Assembly: GCA_026396715.1 (NCBI GenBank)
Contig: JAPLWH010000004.1
Location: 1 to 41,121, forward strand
Direction of reading: 5' to 3'
DNA: 41,121 nucleotides
DNA from: Candidatus Kaiserbacteria bacterium
GTDB taxonomy: Bacteria > Patescibacteriota > Minisyncoccia > Phycocordibacterales > Phycocordibacteraceae
Shown here: positions 11,737 to 34,453 of the stretch, one piece after another
Position numbering within the stretch: position 1 is the first letter of the stretch
How the letters are laid out: every line of letters begins with the position of its first letter
Translations under genes and position numbers: made by a program
Notes under the pieces: model-generated
Seen by the model: the letters and a program-made list of their open reading frames with translations, nothing else
What the model was told of the DNA's origin: nothing
The model's database searches: none

Positions 11737-13206
11737 ATGGCGCGGACTCAAAGACCGCCCGTCATCGCGGTGATGGGCCATATAGACCACGGCAAGTCTT
11801 CGCTTCTGGATTACATCCGGAAGGCGACTGTCGTCGCGGGCGAAGCGGGCGGCATCACGCAGCACGTCGCTGCGTATATCGCGCTCCACAATGAGCGTCC
11901 GATCACTTTCCTCGATACGCCCGGGCACGAAGCCTTCAAAGCGCTCCGCACGCGCGGCGCGGCCGCGGCCGACATCAGTATCCTCGTTGTCGCCGCAGAC
12001 GAAGGCGTGATGCCGCAGACACTCGATGCGCTCGCCGCCATCACTGAAGCGGGAATCCCCTACATCGTCGCAATCACGAAGATCGACAAAAATAATGCCG
12101 ACGTCGGACACGCGAAGAACTCGCTTACTGAACACGGCATCTATATAGAAGGTATGGGCGGCGATATTGCCTTCGCGCTTGTCTCGTCGAAAACCGGCGA
12201 GGGCGTCCCGGAACTCCTCGACCTCGTCCTCCTCTCGGCAGATCTCGCCGACATTACCGCCGACCCAGAGGCAAGCGCGACGGGCTTCATCCTCGAAGCG
12301 ACACAAGACGCAAAGCGCGGCGCCTCGGCGACCCTCATCATAAAAGACGGCACGCTCACGCTCGACGGCTTCGTCGTTGCAGGTGATGCGTTCGCACCGA
12401 TCCGCTTCATCGAGAATTTCCTCGGCAAGCGCGCCCCAAGCGCGGGACCCTCAGAGCCGGTGCGCATTTCCGGATTCTCCAAGCTGCCGTCCGCCGGTTC
12501 CCTGTTCAGTGTTGTGAAGAGCAAGAAGGAAGCAGAGGCGCTCGCCAAAGAGAATGCAAAGTCGTTTTCGGCGGTGCCCGAGCGCGCGGCGGCGGTTGCA
12601 GGCATTACCGAGCTCCCGCTCATCATCAAAGCGGACGTCGCTGGTTCAGTTGATGCGATTGTGCATGAACTGAAAAAGATTACCCACGAACGCGCTTCGA
12701 TCCGCATCGTCTCATCGGGCGTCGGCAGCATTTCAGAGACCGACGTAAAGACCGCGCGCGGTGCAGGCGGGACGATCATAGCTTTCAACGTCTCGACTGA
12801 CGCGATCGCAAGCGACCTCGCACAGCGCGAGAGTATTTCAATCTTCTCATTCTCAATAATTTATGAACTGTCGGCGAAGATCAAAGAATTGCTCGCCGCC
12901 TGCGTCCCAGTCATCTCCGCCGAGAAAGAACTCGGACGTGCCCTCGTCTTGAAAACCTTTTCCTCGGGTACAAAGAAGCAAGTCCTCGGCGCGCGCCACA
13001 TCAAAGGCATCCTGACGGTCGGCGACCGCGTGAAGATTATGCGGAAAGATGTCGAGATTGCGCGCGGCAGCATCGGCAATCTCCAGCAGGCGCGCGCCGA
13101 CGTCAAAGAGATCAAGACCGAAGGCGACTTCGGCACCGAGATCGAAGCACGCGAAAATGCCGTCTACGGCGACGAGCTTATCGCTTTCGTCGTTACTGAA
13201 CTATGA
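11737..13206 (+). CDS. infB: Translation initiation factor IF-2, short form lacking the N-terminal domains
   Basis: [44 protein letters not shown]. Confidence 0.95.
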
Positions 13207-13207
13207 A

Positions 13208-13326
13208 TGCCGTTAGAAATCGCGGACGCATCGGTCGATACCAAAAAACAGGTTCGATTATTAACTCTAACCGAATAGGGTTCGGCTGCGCCACAAGTGG
13301 TGCGTTCGCGTCCTATTTCTAACGGT
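13208..13326 (+). mobile_element. Start-codon-inserted hairpin element, copy 1 (rbfA)
   Basis: ATGAA|TGCCGTTAGAAAT...TCCTATTTCTAACGGT|ATGAA. Confidence 0.7.
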
Positions 13327-13659
13327 ATGAACCCTGACGCTCGCATACGCACCCCTCGCAAGCAGTCGAATCGCGCGACTGAGATCGTCGCACGCGAAGC
13401 TGCGCAATTCATCGCGCGTGAAGCCGGGCGAGAATCCCTCATTACCGTCATTCAGGCGCGCAGCGTCGCGCACGGTGATCGCATTCTCGTTTTCGTGAGC
13501 GTCTTCCCTGTCGAAAAAGCTCACGCGGCAATGGCTTTCCTTGAGCGTCAGCGCGAAGCATTTTCCGACCACTTAAAGACGCATGCGCGCATGCGCCTCC
13601 CGCGCGTCGATTTCCTACTTGATAACGGCGAACCGTTAGCGGAACCTGCAAAAAGTTAG
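13327..13659 (+). CDS. rbfA: Ribosome-binding factor A
   Basis: Directly after infB; LITVIQARS..DRILVFVSVFP and LPRVDFLLD match the RbfA pattern. Confidence 0.8.
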   Translation: MNPDARIRTPRKQSNRATEIVAREAAQFIAREAGRESLITVIQARSVAHGDRILVFVSVFPVEKAHAAMAFLERQREAFSDHLKTHARMRLPRVDFLLDNGEPLAEPAKS

Positions 13660-19801: not shown

Positions 19802-21109
19802 TTATTGTTGCAGTAGCGAACTCAGAGAGCGCGCGGCATCGCCGATGGCTGTATCGAGAGTAGAGTGGCCACTTATCACATTCCCAATCATACCTGAAAA
19901 GACGCGGTCAGCGTCAGCGGGAGCTGGGGACAGCCACCCCTCGGCATAGAGCGCTTCAGGGTATGCAACTGCGGCGACCGGATCAGAAGGAGCGGCCTTC
20001 GCAAGCTCGTTCACACTCGCGGGCGCGAGCCCAGTCGCTGTGGCTGCTGCAGCCTGCTCTGCCGAGCCAGTAAGGAGCACGGCAACCTGATACGCGCCCG
20101 CAGCATTCTTCGCTCCACGCGGCAACATAAAGGCGTAGAGGAGGCCGTAAGCGCGCTTCGTCCTCGCTGTCGCGCTCTGCGGCAGTGGCGTCACGATGAA
20201 ATCGAGATTTGGATTCGCTGAACTGAGAAAACGCGCGCGCGACGCATACCCGAGATAGAGCGCGAGGTCGCCTGTAAGGAACATCTGCTCGGAATCCGGT
20301 AACGAGGTATTCCATGTGTACGAGACTTTCGAAGGGTCAGCGAATTGTGTATAGAAACCGAGCACCGACGAACCTTTCGAGGCATCACTTGAAGCATTTT
20401 GCCCGAGATCAGCGACAGGAACGCCACTCGACGAATACGAAGATATCGGAATCCCCTGCTGCAAGAAGAGTGCTGAAAGTATGCCGCGAGCATTGCGGAC
20501 ATTGTCATAAGTGCCGAGCGCGATGAGGCCGCGAGTAATCTGCCGTGACGGCGTCAAAATTGCGATGTTCGGCACAAGGCCGACAAGAGCTTCCCAGGTT
20601 GCAGGCGGCTTCGCAATACCGCTGCTTGAAAGGATGGAACGATTTGAGAAAAGAACGAGCGGATCGACGAGAAACGGCACGCCGTAGTAGCCAGAGCCGC
20701 CCGGTGCCGTGAAAATACCTCCCTCTCTAATGAATGTTCTTGTGAAGTCGCTCGCTGGAAGCGTCGAAAGCGGCACCGGCTCGATAAACCTCGTGAGCCC
20801 TCGCAAACTCTCCTGTGACGCGAGGACGAGGTCAGGCGAGCTACCAGTCGCTATCGCGGTAGCAATGTCGGCTGGAAGCGTCGCAGCATCTTTCTGCACA
20901 TAGGTAACATCTTTGAGCGTCGCATCAATCTTCGCAGCGGCAGTAAGCGCAGCCTGCATACCCTCGGAAGGCAAAGTGCCCCAGATGACGACACTACCGA
21001 TTGCATTTGATCCGCTCGTGCCCGTGAATGTCGCGAAGACGAACAGACCTATGAGCGCGCCGACGGAGAATACGCCGAGAAGGATGGTTTGAAAGAGAGA
21101 TAATTTCAT
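19802..21109 (-). CDS. Extracellular solute-binding protein (sugar-binding family), N-terminally anchored
   Basis: TM anchor, VVIWGTLP, PDLV, GVPFLVDPLVLFSN, PPATW, FLTGDLALYLG. Confidence 0.8.
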   Translation of the reverse strand: MKLSLFQTILLGVFSVGALIGLFVFATFTGTSGSNAIGSVVIWGTLPSEGMQAALTAAAKIDATLKDVTYVQKDAATLPADIATAIATGSSPDLVLASQESLRGLTRFIEPVPLSTLPASDFTRTFIREGGIFTAPGGSGYYGVPFLVDPLVLFSNRSILSSSGIAKPPATWEALVGLVPNIAILTPSRQITRGLIALGTYDNVRNARGILSALFLQQGIPISSYSSSGVPVADLGQNASSDASKGSSVLGFYTQFADPSKVSYTWNTSLPDSEQMFLTGDLALYLGYASRARFLSSANPNLDFIVTPLPQSATARTKRAYGLLYAFMLPRGAKNAAGAYQVAVLLTGSAEQAAAATATGLAPASVNELAKAAPSDPVAAVAYPEALYAEGWLSPAPADADRVFSGMIGNVISGHSTLDTAIGDAARSLSSLLQQ

Positions 21110-21227
21110 CCCGTTAGAGGTAGGAAATCGGAGATTTCCGTACGATTATTGATGATAATTCTTTCGATACTTTCATCTCGTTCAGCATAGCATTAAAATT
21201 ATCGTCCAGACCTAACCTCTAACGGGA
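21110..21227 (-). mobile_element. Start-codon-inserted hairpin element, copy 2 (solute-binding protein gene)
   Basis: Minus strand: ATGAA|TCCCGTTAGAGGT...TCCTACCTCTAACGGG|ATGAA. Confidence 0.7.
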
Positions 21228-21228
21228 T

Positions 21229-21765
21229 TCATGGTGAGGTAAAGACGATTCCGTAATGGTGCGGCCCGGCGCGAAACGACTTTACCTTATGAAAACCGCC
21301 ACTAATGAAGAAGTCTTCCGCGGCGTGCTCAGTGACGACTTTCTCGGGTACTGGACCCAACCCACCGTAACTGCCCGCCCAGTCGACAACCATAAGCTTC
21401 CCTCCCGACTTAAGTACGCGCTTCATCTCCTTTAAGAGTCCAAAACGATTCTCGATCTGAAAGAGCGTGTTTGCGAGAATGATTGCGTCGAGCGACGCAT
21501 CGCGCAAATGCGATCCACCCGGTTTTTCGATATCGCCCCAGATCGTTTCGATAGTGCTCTGATGATGCGCGTGCGTATTGAGCTTGAGATGCTTGAGGAT
21601 TTCCTCCTGCACGTCGATCGCGTAGACCCTACCGCTGTGCCCGACGATAGCTGCCGCCGCGCGCGAATAGTGGCCGGTGCCCGCGCCGAAGTCGCCGACC
21701 TTCATGCCTTCGCGCAAACCAAGCTGCAACACGTTCTCGTGCGGGACGCTAAATGAGACACTCAT
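21229..21765 (-). CDS. Class I SAM-dependent methyltransferase
   Basis: VGDFGAGTG, VYAIDVQ, RVLKSGGKLMVVDW; start ATG 21765 follows TGgTATTTT. Confidence 0.88.
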   Translation of the reverse strand: MSVSFSVPHENVLQLGLREGMKVGDFGAGTGHYSRAAAAIVGHSGRVYAIDVQEEILKHLKLNTHAHHQSTIETIWGDIEKPGGSHLRDASLDAIILANTLFQIENRFGLLKEMKRVLKSGGKLMVVDWAGSYGGLGPVPEKVVTEHAAEDFFISGGFHKVKSFRAGPHHYGIVFTSP

Positions 21766-21910
21766 GCCTATAAAATACCATGCCCAGCCCCACTTTCTTC
21801 GTGCATTTTGAATACCTGTGATAATTGGAAGTGTAACGAGGAACTGGAGTGGAAAGTGGAGCTGGACAATCAACAAGCCGGACCATTCTCCATAGAATGA
21901 TCCGGCCAAC

Positions 21911-28162: not shown

Positions 28163-28187
28163 GCGCGGATAGTAGCACAGGGCACGG

Positions 28188-28371
28188 GCGTGATGGTATT
28201 AAATTTCGGACTCGCACAGTGAGCATGTCCGCGAGTCCCCGAGCGGATGCCGCCGAGCTTTGGCGGCGGATAAGCATGGTCCGACGCGTCTGCGCGTCGG
28301 TTATGCGAACGAGCGTGAGCGCGTCGACCCGCTGGGACGACGACGCGTGCCGAAATTTAATACCATCACGC
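28188..28371. mobile_element. MITE-like element with 22-bp perfect terminal inverted repeats
   Basis: GCGTGATGGTATTAAATTTCGG (28188-28209) and CCGAAATTTAATACCATCACGC (28350-28371). Confidence 0.7.
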
Positions 28372-28415
28372 TCGCAAAAACTTGCGCGCAAAAAAGCGAA
28401 GCGTACAATACGCAC

Positions 28416-33413: not shown

Positions 33414-33451
33414 TCTCTCGGCTATGAACGGTACACTACGAGCTATATGTA

Positions 33452-33529
33452 CCCCGTTAGAAATGACGGACTTATATGCTTACCTTATTCACACTTATGA
33501 ACGAGACGAACCGTCCTATTTCTAACGAG
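33452..33529 (+). mobile_element. Start-codon-inserted hairpin element, copy 3 (trxB)
   Basis: ATGTA|CCCCGTTAGAAAT...TCCTATTTCTAACGAG|GTGCA. Confidence 0.65.
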
Positions 33530-34453
33530 GTGCACGACCTCATCATCATCGGCGGCGGACCGGCGGGCGTCGCCGCGGGCGTCTACGCGGCTCGCAAACA
33601 CTTGAAGACCGCCCTCATTACGGAAGAGATCGGCGGACAATCGGTCGTCTCCGATGGCATAGAGAACTGGATCGGCACGCCGAAGATCAGCGGCGCCGAT
33701 CTCGCGAAATCATTCAAAGCGCATCTCGACGCCGTGAAAGGCGACGTGGTAACGCTGGTACTCGGCGAACGGGTCGTGTCGCTCACAAAAGCCCCAGAAG
33801 GATTCCTCGCGAAGACGAAGACCGGAAAAGAGTTTACGGCGAAAGCGGTGCTCATCGCCACCGGCGCGGGCCGCCGCAAGCTCGACGTCCCTGGCGCACA
33901 CCTCTTTGAGAACAAAGGCGTTACCTACTGCGCCTCTTGCGACGGACCGCTCTTCGGCGGCATGGACGTCGCGGTCATCGGCGGCGGCAATGCAGGCTTC
34001 GAGACGGCGCTCCAGCTCCTCGCGTATGCAAAGTCGGTCACGCTCATCCATCGCCATAAAGAGTTCAAGGCCGATGCGGTCACGGTCGAGAAAGCGAGCG
34101 CGCACCCGAACATGCGTATCATCCGGCACGCTGAACCGACTGAGGTCATGGGCACGCAGTTCGTAACCGGTTTGAAATACAAAGACAAAGACTCGGGCGA
34201 GGTACAAGAGCTCGCCGTCTCCGGCGTCTTCGTCGAAGCGGGCGTCATCCCGAATACCGACTTCACTGAGGGGCTCGTGGAACTCGACGCAGTCAAACGC
34301 GTGAAGACCGATCCGCGCAATCAGCACACGAGCGTCGAAGGCGTCTGGGCGGCGGGAGACTGCACCGACGAGCTCTATCATCAGAACAACATCGCCACCG
34401 GCGACGGCGTGAAGGCGCTCGAAGACATCTACCTCTGGATCAAGAAGCAGTAG
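33530..34453 (+). CDS. trxB: Thioredoxin reductase / AhpF C-terminal-like FAD disulfide reductase
   Basis: DLIIIGGGPAG, CASCDG, IGGGNAG, WAAGD; start is GTG 33530 or in-frame ATG 33497. Confidence 0.9.
   Translation: MHDLIIIGGGPAGVAAGVYAARKHLKTALITEEIGGQSVVSDGIENWIGTPKISGADLAKSFKAHLDAVKGDVVTLVLGERVVSLTKAPEGFLAKTKTGKEFTAKAVLIATGAGRRKLDVPGAHLFENKGVTYCASCDGPLFGGMDVAVIGGGNAGFETALQLLAYAKSVTLIHRHKEFKADAVTVEKASAHPNMRIIRHAEPTEVMGTQFVTGLKYKDKDSGEVQELAVSGVFVEAGVIPNTDFTEGLVELDAVKRVKTDPRNQHTSVEGVWAAGDCTDELYHQNNIATGDGVKALEDIYLWIKKQ

Follow-up and report, generated by a model that had tools for sequence, protein, structure and literature searches.

How can a gene that starts on the stop codon of its neighbour be parted from it and still keep its own start codon? 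This question is raised by a junction on the minus strand of the 41,121-nt contig JAPLWH010000004.1 of a Candidatus Kaiserbacteria bacterium, here called the window, which is contig C3 of a 705-kb genome with 32 contigs and 53% G+C (G000, the own genome) from an ultra-small bacterium resembling those of the Candidate Phyla Radiation. At 21105-21232, a hairpin-forming element of 119 nt (21109-21227) without a gene of its own lies between the genes for an S-adenosylmethionine (SAM)-dependent methyltransferase and an extracellular solute-binding protein (SBP). As the second of three related sequences in the window, it is referred to as copy 2. The initial annotation had described it as splitting an ATGA stop/start overlap, and every part described there was found in place. 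The comparison with related genomes shows that copy 2 is an insertion into a former ATGA overlap at a site that is empty in most relatives. Most probably, copy 2 belongs to a hairpin-ended mobile family that resembles MITEs (miniature inverted-repeat transposable elements) and whose full-length form carries a single gene for a GIY-YIG nuclease of about 95 amino acids (aa).

On the minus strand, the junction reads ccATGAA, T, CCCGTTAGAGGT, 93 nt, ACCTCTAACGGG and ATGAAA, with ...ttacctcacc before the left ATGAA and attatctc... after the right one. The stop codon TGA of the methyltransferase gene (21231-21229) falls within the left ATGAA, which now opens merely a 6-codon open reading frame (ORF; MNPVRG*, 21232-21212). 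It is followed by an extra T at 21227 and by CCCGTTAGAGGT at 21226-21215. The right arm holds a conserved TAA (21116-21114) located 4 nt upstream of the host ATG, and its final A (21109) is at the same time the A of the SBP start codon. Within the interior, the 3' part is conserved in the subfamily of copy 2 as ATAATCGTACGGAAATC-nnn-GATTTCCT; in addition, a 7-bp mini-hairpin at 21139-21123 and two ATGs at 21188 and 21176, both in frame with the TAA of the arm, were identified. According to Pfam, the upstream ORF matches methyltransferase families (PF13847, E 7.8e-16) and the downstream ORF matches SBP_bac_8 (E 2.3e-21); the N-terminus of the latter, MK(L/I)SLFQ, can be aligned with that of orthologues whose start is an empty ATGAAA. 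A repeat search returned a perfect 14-nt inverted repeat with arms 93 nt apart. The 151-nt region folds with -41.2 kcal/mol as RNA (z -3.34) and with -21.9 kcal/mol as DNA (z -3.37), in both cases with none of 200 shuffles as good, and the 14-bp closing stem of this fold takes in the A and the U of the SBP AUG.

The orthologous junction was sought with the 1.4-kb region in 40 relatives, and BLAST followed by inspection led to 11 same-genus genomes. Six of these (G005, G009, G016, G006, G008 and G007) carry an exact, element-free ccATGAAA, which is the ATGA-coupled gene pair that the initial annotation had expected after removal of the element and one ATGAA. Near-variants with neither an element nor a long spacer were found in three further relatives, reading ccCACGGTATGAAA, ccTGAACCATGAAG and ccATAGTATGAAA, while the junction is occupied in the remaining two, G012 and G013. 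A long ancestral spacer without overlap, named beforehand as the contrary outcome, was seen in 0/11 relatives. The element of G012 belongs to the AGAGGT subfamily of copy 2, whereas that of G013 lies at the identical position and belongs to another subfamily (AGAAAT-CGCGGACGC...). In a tree of the flanking proteins, the own genome and G013 are sisters (100/100), with the remaining taxa unresolved. Since the two sisters carry unrelated interiors at the same five bases, a second insertion or a replacement is needed. The interior of copy 2 is 0.79 identical to the copy of G012 and 0.61-0.76 identical to other subfamily members, a difference too small to distinguish shared descent from independent insertion.

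Further sites of the family show the same polymorphism. The site of copy 1 is empty in the sister G013 (gagct ATGAACCCTGAC), the site of C5:15692 is empty in G013 and G005, and both C21 copies are missing from their sites in G009 and G005, and C21:40541 also from its site in G012 and G022. Larger gaps at orthologous sites in G013:C32, G012:C25 and G022:C3 turned out to be other genes or another conserved structured region and were rejected as elements. The site of copy 1 (window 13203) in G006 (L061, G006:C8) contains only 29 nt of arm sequence, CCCCATTAGAAATCGGATTTCAAACGGGG, which lie in frame within the host gene's 5' end; the element apparently collapsed in place here, and its remnant is now translated. 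Among the 121 same-genus genomes surveyed, the arm pattern occurs in 31, with 0-29 copies each compared to 0-1 per genome for a reversed-pattern control, which exceeds chance; in the survey of the phylum it occurs in 55/401 genomes and 41/320 genera. At least part of the window is contained in 20 sequencing runs (all contigs), 6 of them with half or more of the sampled words, and one metagenome contig from the four runs examined spans copy 2 unchanged.

A search of the own genome for the exact arm pair CGTTAGA...TCTAACG within 40-250 nt yielded 22 matches, and 31 if one mismatch per arm was allowed. After removal of three weak pairs on C13 and of the left arm of the element on C20, and with the pairing of C3:13210 corrected, 27 copies were kept, the arms of which pair further. 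For 20 of the 27, the right-hand repeat is the ATG or GTG opening an ORF of 97-603 aa, and 20 of the 27 comprise identical 5-nt flanks, i.e. a 4-5-nt duplication. The flanking 5-mers are ATGAA (10), ATGCG (5), ATGGA (2) and GTGAA, GCGAG, GTATA, GTACA and GCTAG (one each). An upstream ORF stops inside the left (A/G)TGA at four copies and 2-14 nt before the left repeat at many others. At the right end of copy 3, the GTG start of a gene for a pyridine-nucleotide disulphide oxidoreductase (307 aa, Pfam) is rebuilt. Judged by eye, an asymmetric YCTA bulge beside one arm is gene-proximal in 14 of the 15 start-codon copies having one. The reconstructed insertion sites contain information at R-T-G-[ACG]-[AG] alone and none up- or downstream of it.

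The number of available targets was compared with these observations on the basis of a crude gene call (longest ORFs; 731 ORFs, 89% coding). ATGAA occurs 2004 times in the genome, 217 times in non-coding sequence away from called starts and 88 times at called starts; a tolerance of non-coding sites alone therefore leaves the start-codon bias unexplained, since it would not place practically every ATG-type copy on a start codon. With the same gene call, 4-mers resembling the Shine-Dalgarno (SD) sequence were counted upstream of 93/725 called starts compared to 99/725 in an in-gene control, which suggests that the organism makes little use of SD pairing, and ATGA overlaps were found in 47/449 co-directional neighbour pairs. 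The SD-like 4-mers are not enriched before called starts. Initiation in this genome probably relies on coupling and accessibility.

The arms were analyzed in a pool of 46 copies (22 from the own genome and 24 from fetched loci), for which pairing at 12 or more of the first 14 positions was required. The stem comprises 13 bp, of which positions 1-9 are nearly invariant (CCCGTTAGA), and pairing ends after position 12. At position 0, 34 copies have T-A, 11 have C-G and one has a mispair; position 10 shows A-T 22, G-C 19 and T-A 5 times, position 11 shows A-T 35 and G-C 11 times, and position 12 is paired in 43/46. At positions 10 and 11, the pairs are Watson-Crick in 46/46 copies each. The double compensatory change noted between copy 2 (AGAGGT/ACCTCT) and copies 1 and 3 (AGAAAT/ATTTCT) is thus confirmed in the sequence and holds for the whole pool; the internal TGAACGAGAYGAA, said to be common to copies 2 and 3, is likewise present. 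Even exceptions in the core are compensated, with GTGAGA/TCTCAC at C28:9979 and GTTACA/TGTAAC at C32:2584. Within the genome, the identity of the interiors does not exceed 76%, and the best partner of copy 2 reaches 56%, while the arms are intact throughout. Altogether, these data show that the arms must pair across copies and that the distal 3 bp are free to change.

As to the unit that is duplicated, the left repeat is followed by an extra T if the right repeat begins with A, and by an extra C if it begins with G. In four copies the first bases of the two 5-mers differ (Table 1), and in all of them the right-hand base pairs with the extra nucleotide on the left. In the simplest reading, the duplication comprises 4 nt (TGAA here) and the element brings its own terminal pair, the 3' base of which rebuilds the start codon. 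A G before the left TGNN-equivalent, which is kept in 5/6 off-start copies with C...G ends, lies outside this 4-nt-duplication reading.

A Pfam search of the own genome revealed five small GIY-YIG ORFs, one of which lies in the full-length element on C20. This element reads ...cgat ATGAA T ACCGTTAGAGATA ... TATCTCTAACGGT ATGAA aatc. Its 95-aa ORF starts with the left ATG, runs through the arm (MNTVRDNKGFAYVYVL...) and stops with the TGA of the right ATGA. PF01541 is its sole Pfam family (E 1.6e-13, residues 11-77), and a PDB search gave UPF0213 BH0048 (1zg2, E 2.7e-9) as the best solved relative. In NCBIfam, nothing scored above the cut-off, the best match being a group I intron endonuclease with 17.9 bits (cut-off 56), and a Protein Atlas search led only to generic small GIY-YIG clusters, which are uninformative on membership in the Ssn nucleases discussed below. 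Homologues at E<=1e-8 are present in 43/121 same-genus genomes. Nine full-length copies were compared (the own one and those of 8 genomes, 62-83% aa identity). In all nine, the ORF begins with the ATG of the host on the left, and the arm encodes MN(P/T)VR; 8/9 stop in the TGA of the right ATGA, while the ninth, with C...G ends, stops at the TAA of the arm and leaves the host gene a GTG start. More distant nuclease homologues (L032/L034, L037 and L045) comprise other inverted ends and are also found between duplicated ATGs. The arms enclose no ORF of the genome other than the GIY-YIG gene, and the other large arm pairs are separate copies lying next to each other. Copy 2 is thus best seen as a non-autonomous relative of this GIY-YIG-carrying element, which has the same arm core and whose product may mobilise gene-less copies.

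Two other GIY-YIG loci were observed in this genome. At G000:C29:12080-12286 (L014), a small GIY-YIG ORF (88 aa open frame) lies inside an RNase P RNA-like gene (GGAAAGTCCG...) and is bracketed by CCAGCCCCAGTTTTAGG and CCTAAAACTGGGGCTGG. At G000:C4:143-367, a small GIY-YIG ORF is followed downstream by two copies of TCTCACGGGGTA, which matches the variant arms of the element C28:9979 (CCCGTGAGA/TCTCACGGG).

If the element is placed on start codons, the question arises how the host gene is still expressed. Here, the subfamily of copy 2 is informative: its 9 copies occupy no fewer than 7 different sites in 6 genomes and invariably have ATGAA/ATGAA as flanks. A leader ORF of 38-40 codons (MNPVRGQ...IIVRKSxISYL*) is retained in seven of them; it opens at the left ATG and runs up to the TAA of the arm, 4 nt short of the right ATG. 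In the leader-keeping copies, the distance from repeat to repeat is 121, 124 or 127, all 1 mod 3, despite a poorly conserved middle. The G013 element at the site of copy 2 comprises a 38-codon ORF too, and 8 long copies of the own genome show a leader ORF of 37-39 codons. Three own copies with an 84-nt period (C8:29017, C13:27157 and C32:2584) are open and in frame and add 28 codons to the host gene. Sense frame 0 is without an interior stop in 16/26 long copies compared to 3 and 3 in the other sense frames; as evidence for a leader, this excess is suggestive only. In copy 2 itself, the leader was lost by a change from CAG to TAG at codon 7 and by a 2-nt insertion (+2 frameshift, period 123), leaving the 6-codon remnant over the left arm and an interior that is still open in the frame of the TAA. 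Copy 2 is accordingly a decayed family member. The same C>T nonsense change at codon 7, at the first unpaired base past the stem, was observed independently in copy 2 (window 21214) and in L053 (G012:C19), which may reflect chance or a mutational hot spot.

Based on these patterns, a mechanism can be proposed. The nuclease would recognise the arm hairpin in single-stranded DNA (ssDNA) and cut beside the stem, as Ssn nucleases do, and this cutting would mobilise full-length and gene-less copies alike. The conserved core of the stem, its distal part that is kept for pairing only and the variable 4-5-nt flank would fit an Ssn-type recognition. Once inserted, the element would be translated from the start codon of its host. 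In full-length copies, reading from the host ATG would yield the nuclease ORF, which ends within the rebuilt ATGA; most gene-less copies would give a leader of 37-40 codons that stops at the TAA of the arm, from where ribosomes would be passed to the host gene. In copy 2, ribosomes that terminate on the methyltransferase gene or on the 6-codon remnant would cover the 13-nt left arm and melt the stem. The melting would free the right arm together with the sequestered start codon of the SBP gene, which would amount to coupling by unwinding.

Beyond this, we tentatively put forward, as a possibility that we rate below even, that the elements represent a distinct class of transposon, a "translational hitch-hiker". 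In its entirety, this reading holds that a nuclease of about 95 aa may lack a promoter, ribosome-binding site and start codon of its own, that the element may land on a host start codon and borrow this codon for its translation, and that it may return the ribosome to the host gene via the rebuilt ATGA or via TAA-N4-ATG. In the boldest version, the mechanism of insertion itself may pick start codons, instead of selection acting after random insertion, and the flank of the donor or an internal guide may set the target tetranucleotide. A target set by the element would explain why ATGAA flanks 9/9 copies of the copy-2 subfamily and ATGCG flanks 4/5 copies of the CACGAACAC subfamily. Such subfamily-specific flanks hint that the element's own DNA, beside the protein, may help to set the target; no consistent internal guide complementary to the target tetranucleotide was found when the copies were compared by eye.

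Several points weigh against the interpretation as a mobile family with this mode of expression. The mechanism of transposition, cleavage and translation is wholly inferred from sequence, and a hydrolytic nuclease of 95 aa alone cannot explain the integration or the 4-nt duplication. The nuclease can at best be called a possible member of the Ssn family (cd10448); its best solved relative is 1zg2, and the NCBIfam scores lie below the cut-off. As copy 2 is without a leader, the expression of its host gene would depend on the proposed unwinding or re-initiation. The argument from open frames is weakened, as the antisense frames -1 and -2 are stop-free in 13/26 long copies each and the copies are related to each other. 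Six own copies lie off start codons (C13:314, C18:1390, C28:9979, C30:1911, C32:2584 and C8:39753), all with C...G termini except C8:39753, which has T...A ends. Moreover, the gene calls behind the ATGAA and SD counts are crude, and the conservation of the arms is partly a matter of ascertainment, because the copies were found by their arms. In the contigs of the four metagenome runs, neither a joint nor an empty allele was detected; since contigs drop rare variants, these runs are silent on excision and expression.

Table 1. Coordinates of copy 2, its neighbouring genes and other elements and ORFs considered in this work (positions without a contig prefix refer to the window).
Feature	Position	Strand	Description
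Methyltransferase gene (upstream)	21229..21909	-	SAM-dependent methyltransferase, 226 aa from TTG (ORF list and Pfam)
Left ATGAA	21228..21232	-	direct-repeat copy, original stop/start overlap ATGA
Left arm	21215..21227	-	T-CCCGTTAGAGGT, 13 nt, pairs with right arm
Interior	21122..21214	-	93 nt, non-coding in copy 2
Right arm	21109..21121	-	ACCTCTAACGGG-A, with ACCTCTAACGGG at 21121-21110
Right ATGAA	21105..21109	-	direct-repeat copy, working SBP start
SBP gene (downstream)	19802..21109	-	extracellular solute-binding protein, 435 aa (ORF list and Pfam)
Copy 1	13203..13331	+	subfamily with AGAAAT-CGCGGACGC arms, flanks ATGAA/ATGAA
Copy 3 (C3:33454)	33447..33534	+	C...G termini, flanks ATGTA/GTGCA, extra C
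Copy with unequal flanks	C7:56027		flanks GTGAA/ATGAA, extra T
Copy with unequal flanks	C13:314		flanks ACGAA/GCGAA, extra C
Copy with unequal flanks	L033 of G015		flanks ATGAA/GTGAA, extra C
Full-length element	G000:C20:1524-1811		between pheS-like and pheT-like genes, same arms around 95-aa ORF
Y1-type ORF	G000:C25:11774-12499		own palindrome
Y1-type ORF	G000:C20:27098-27766		own palindrome
Y1-type ORF	G000:C20:19797-20486		own palindrome

The stable fold over a start codon could also be explained by a cis-regulatory RNA of the host, in which the hairpin controls the translation of the SBP gene as a thermometer or by a protein- or ligand-responsive sequestration of the AUG, the mobility-like features being secondary. 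Indeed, the SBP start codon has its A and U held in the closing stem, the fold beats 200/200 shuffles, the stem covaries, and with no SD enrichment the accessibility of the start codon should matter. Nonetheless, 9/11 relatives comprise the same gene pair free of the element, the element at this site differs in its interior in the sister genome, and the same arms stand before unrelated genes and around a nuclease gene. Furthermore, the distribution within the genus is patchy, and a whole-window Rfam scan yielded only 6 tRNAs at gathering score and no family at 21105-21232. A regulatory RNA as the origin of the element is hence considered unlikely, while a regulatory side effect of the element on the SBP gene may exist. 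Less probable still is an RNA-level intervening sequence, by which the hairpin would join the ATGAA repeats and the transcript would be cut and rejoined to restore the ATGA overlap. Only the geometry speaks for it, as a 13-14-bp stem has the same 5-nt repeat on either side of its foot; no ribozyme or intron family was matched in Rfam, and both the kept leader frame and a nuclease ORF running from the left ATG to the right ATGA are sensible only if the sequence is translated unspliced. It is the least credible of the explanations considered.

The two remaining alternatives accept a mobile origin but differ in the moving form or in the enzyme. Copy 2 could be an in-situ relic, i.e. a full-length nuclease element that landed at the junction and lost its gene by internal deletion, so that copy 2 never moved in its gene-less form. 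Arms and target are common to full-length and short copies, and the arm-only remnant of G006 at the site of copy 1 shows that an in-place collapse occurs. However, nine copies at at least seven sites in six genomes share the same non-nuclease interior (ATAATCGTACGGAAATC...GATTTCCT), as would be expected only if spread took place in the short form, and a reading by eye made no likeness of the interior to the nuclease ORF evident. We regard a relic as very improbable, and about as improbable, if anything slightly more so, a mobilisation by a Y1 (HUH) transposase of the REP-associated or IS200-like kind, as in REPIN-RAYT systems, instead of the GIY-YIG nuclease. Three Y1_Tnp-like ORFs of 222-241 aa are encoded in the genome, one of them above the Pfam cut-off (31.3 bits), and the hairpin geometry is similar to that of REPINs. 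In contrast, a different palindrome of its own (e.g. ggaaggtctgaccttcc) stands on either side of each Y1 ORF, and none of the three lies between CCGTTAGA arms, which enclose the GIY-YIG gene as sole ORF. Y1/RAYT transposases were therefore rejected as mobilising enzyme; with their palindromes, the Y1 ORFs make up a hairpin-repeat system of their own within the genome. The preferred interpretation remains a gene-less mobile copy with a GIY-YIG-encoding partner.

Bacterial MITEs, for example the Correia/NEMIS elements of Neisseria, are short and gene-less and comprise terminal inverted repeats, a short target duplication and many copies. Copy 2 corresponds to this description, as it is short, gene-less and bounded by perfect 13-14-nt terminal inverted repeats, its target duplication was checked against the empty site (ATGAA on both sides, a single ccATGAAA in 6/11), and its copies are dispersed and polymorphic between relatives (27 in the own genome, 0-29 per congener). 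Presence/absence polymorphism and a longer gene-carrying relative with the same ends are likewise shared with MITEs. The present family differs in its partner gene, which encodes a 95-aa GIY-YIG nuclease and not a DDE, serine or tyrosine transposase, and in its insertion on start codons in a fixed orientation with a presumed ribosome read-through. Rickettsia palindromic elements are also mobile, insert within coding regions and are tolerated inside expressed reading frames; the three own copies of 84-nt period, in frame and adding 28 codons, are reminiscent of them. To our knowledge, neither a start-codon preference nor an associated nuclease gene is known for the Rickettsia elements. IS200/IS605 and REPIN-RAYT systems rely on a Y1 HUH transposase that acts through a covalent intermediate, and they are not known to duplicate their target. 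In contrast, the present family shows a 4-5-nt duplication in 20/27 copies, and the Y1 ORFs of the genome have other palindromes. Common to the family and to IS200/IS605-derived palindrome-associated transposable elements (PATEs) and REPIN-RAYT systems are small size, hairpins recognised in ssDNA (presumably so in the present family), short specific targets and abundant gene-less derivatives.

The closest resemblance was found to the Ssn nucleases. According to the article text (Chenal et al., Nat Commun 2025, PMC11893778), these are 94-aa single-domain GIY-YIG proteins that bind a hairpin in ssDNA only, cut a few nucleotides upstream of it in a variable flank and accept a hairpin formed by two strands. 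The ssn genes are flanked by hairpins, and the authors state that the arrangement NTS-ssnA-NTS resembles an insertion sequence. In both systems, the sole gene encodes a GIY-YIG protein that has a single domain and about 94-95 aa, and this gene is bracketed by a hairpin-forming inverted sequence with many gene-less copies genome-wide, and in both the sequence of the stem as well as its pairing matter. Whereas each flank of the Ssn system contains a self-contained hairpin of about 30 nt, the two ends of the present family pair across the whole element, and the arm (T/C)CCCGTTAGA is unlike the printed NTS consensus when compared by eye. For Ssn, the authors propose a role in transformation; target duplication, empty-site evidence or an association with start codons is not reported in the article text ('start codon' 0 occurrences), and a term search of the same text gave no mention of start codons, MITEs or Patescibacteria. 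The way back to the host gene also has a known counterpart, since translational coupling at ATGA overlaps proceeds by termination-reinitiation (Huber et al. 2019, PMC6728339; review, PMC12548453). The host junction is such an ATGA overlap, full-length elements recreate an ATGA, and gene-less copies end their leader ORF 4 nt before the host ATG. Compared to plain coupling, the device would here be imported by a mobile element that places a 13-bp stem over the start codon.

A full-text literature search led to no paper describing start-codon insertion by GIY-YIG hairpin elements. The family thus appears to be undescribed in print. In kind, its members would be miniature transposons that have hairpin ends and a small nuclease as partner. 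If the interpretation is correct, insertion at the first codon lets selfish DNA persist in genomes with about 90% coding sequence without breaking genes and be expressed without signals of its own. It would also place the tiny hairpin-specific GIY-YIG nucleases of the Ssn type, whose biochemistry has only recently been described, inside moving elements and suggest an origin for their scattered hairpin repeats. For annotation, such insertions yield false upstream starts, short leader ORFs and occasional N-terminal extensions of 22-28 codons in Patescibacteria. Finally, closely related genomes that share this gene pair but differ in whether a 13-bp stem covers the start codon represent a natural experiment on coupling in organisms without apparent use of SD pairing.

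Three minor observations concern the arms and the window. A class of 57-61 nt with the same arms and mostly C...G ends (G000:C18:1390-1447 and C8:39753-39810, with many members in G009, G049 and G131) contains two internal G+C-rich hairpins that covary between copies, and it lies off start codons in G000. The arm pair CCGTTAGA/TCTAACGG also brackets whole tRNA genes identified with ARAGORN, namely tRNA-Val and tRNA-Gly, at L057 301-405 (G131:C18:16944-17048) and L058 301-410 (G078:C2:235594-235703), which are either cargo-carrying copies or insertions on either side of a tRNA. Elsewhere in the window, at 28185-28374, a 25-nt inverted repeat with 96% complementarity surrounds 140 nt of G+C-rich sequence. 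It has no Rfam family at gathering score and a similar sequence in the relative G022 (L089), and it looks like a conserved structured RNA gene.

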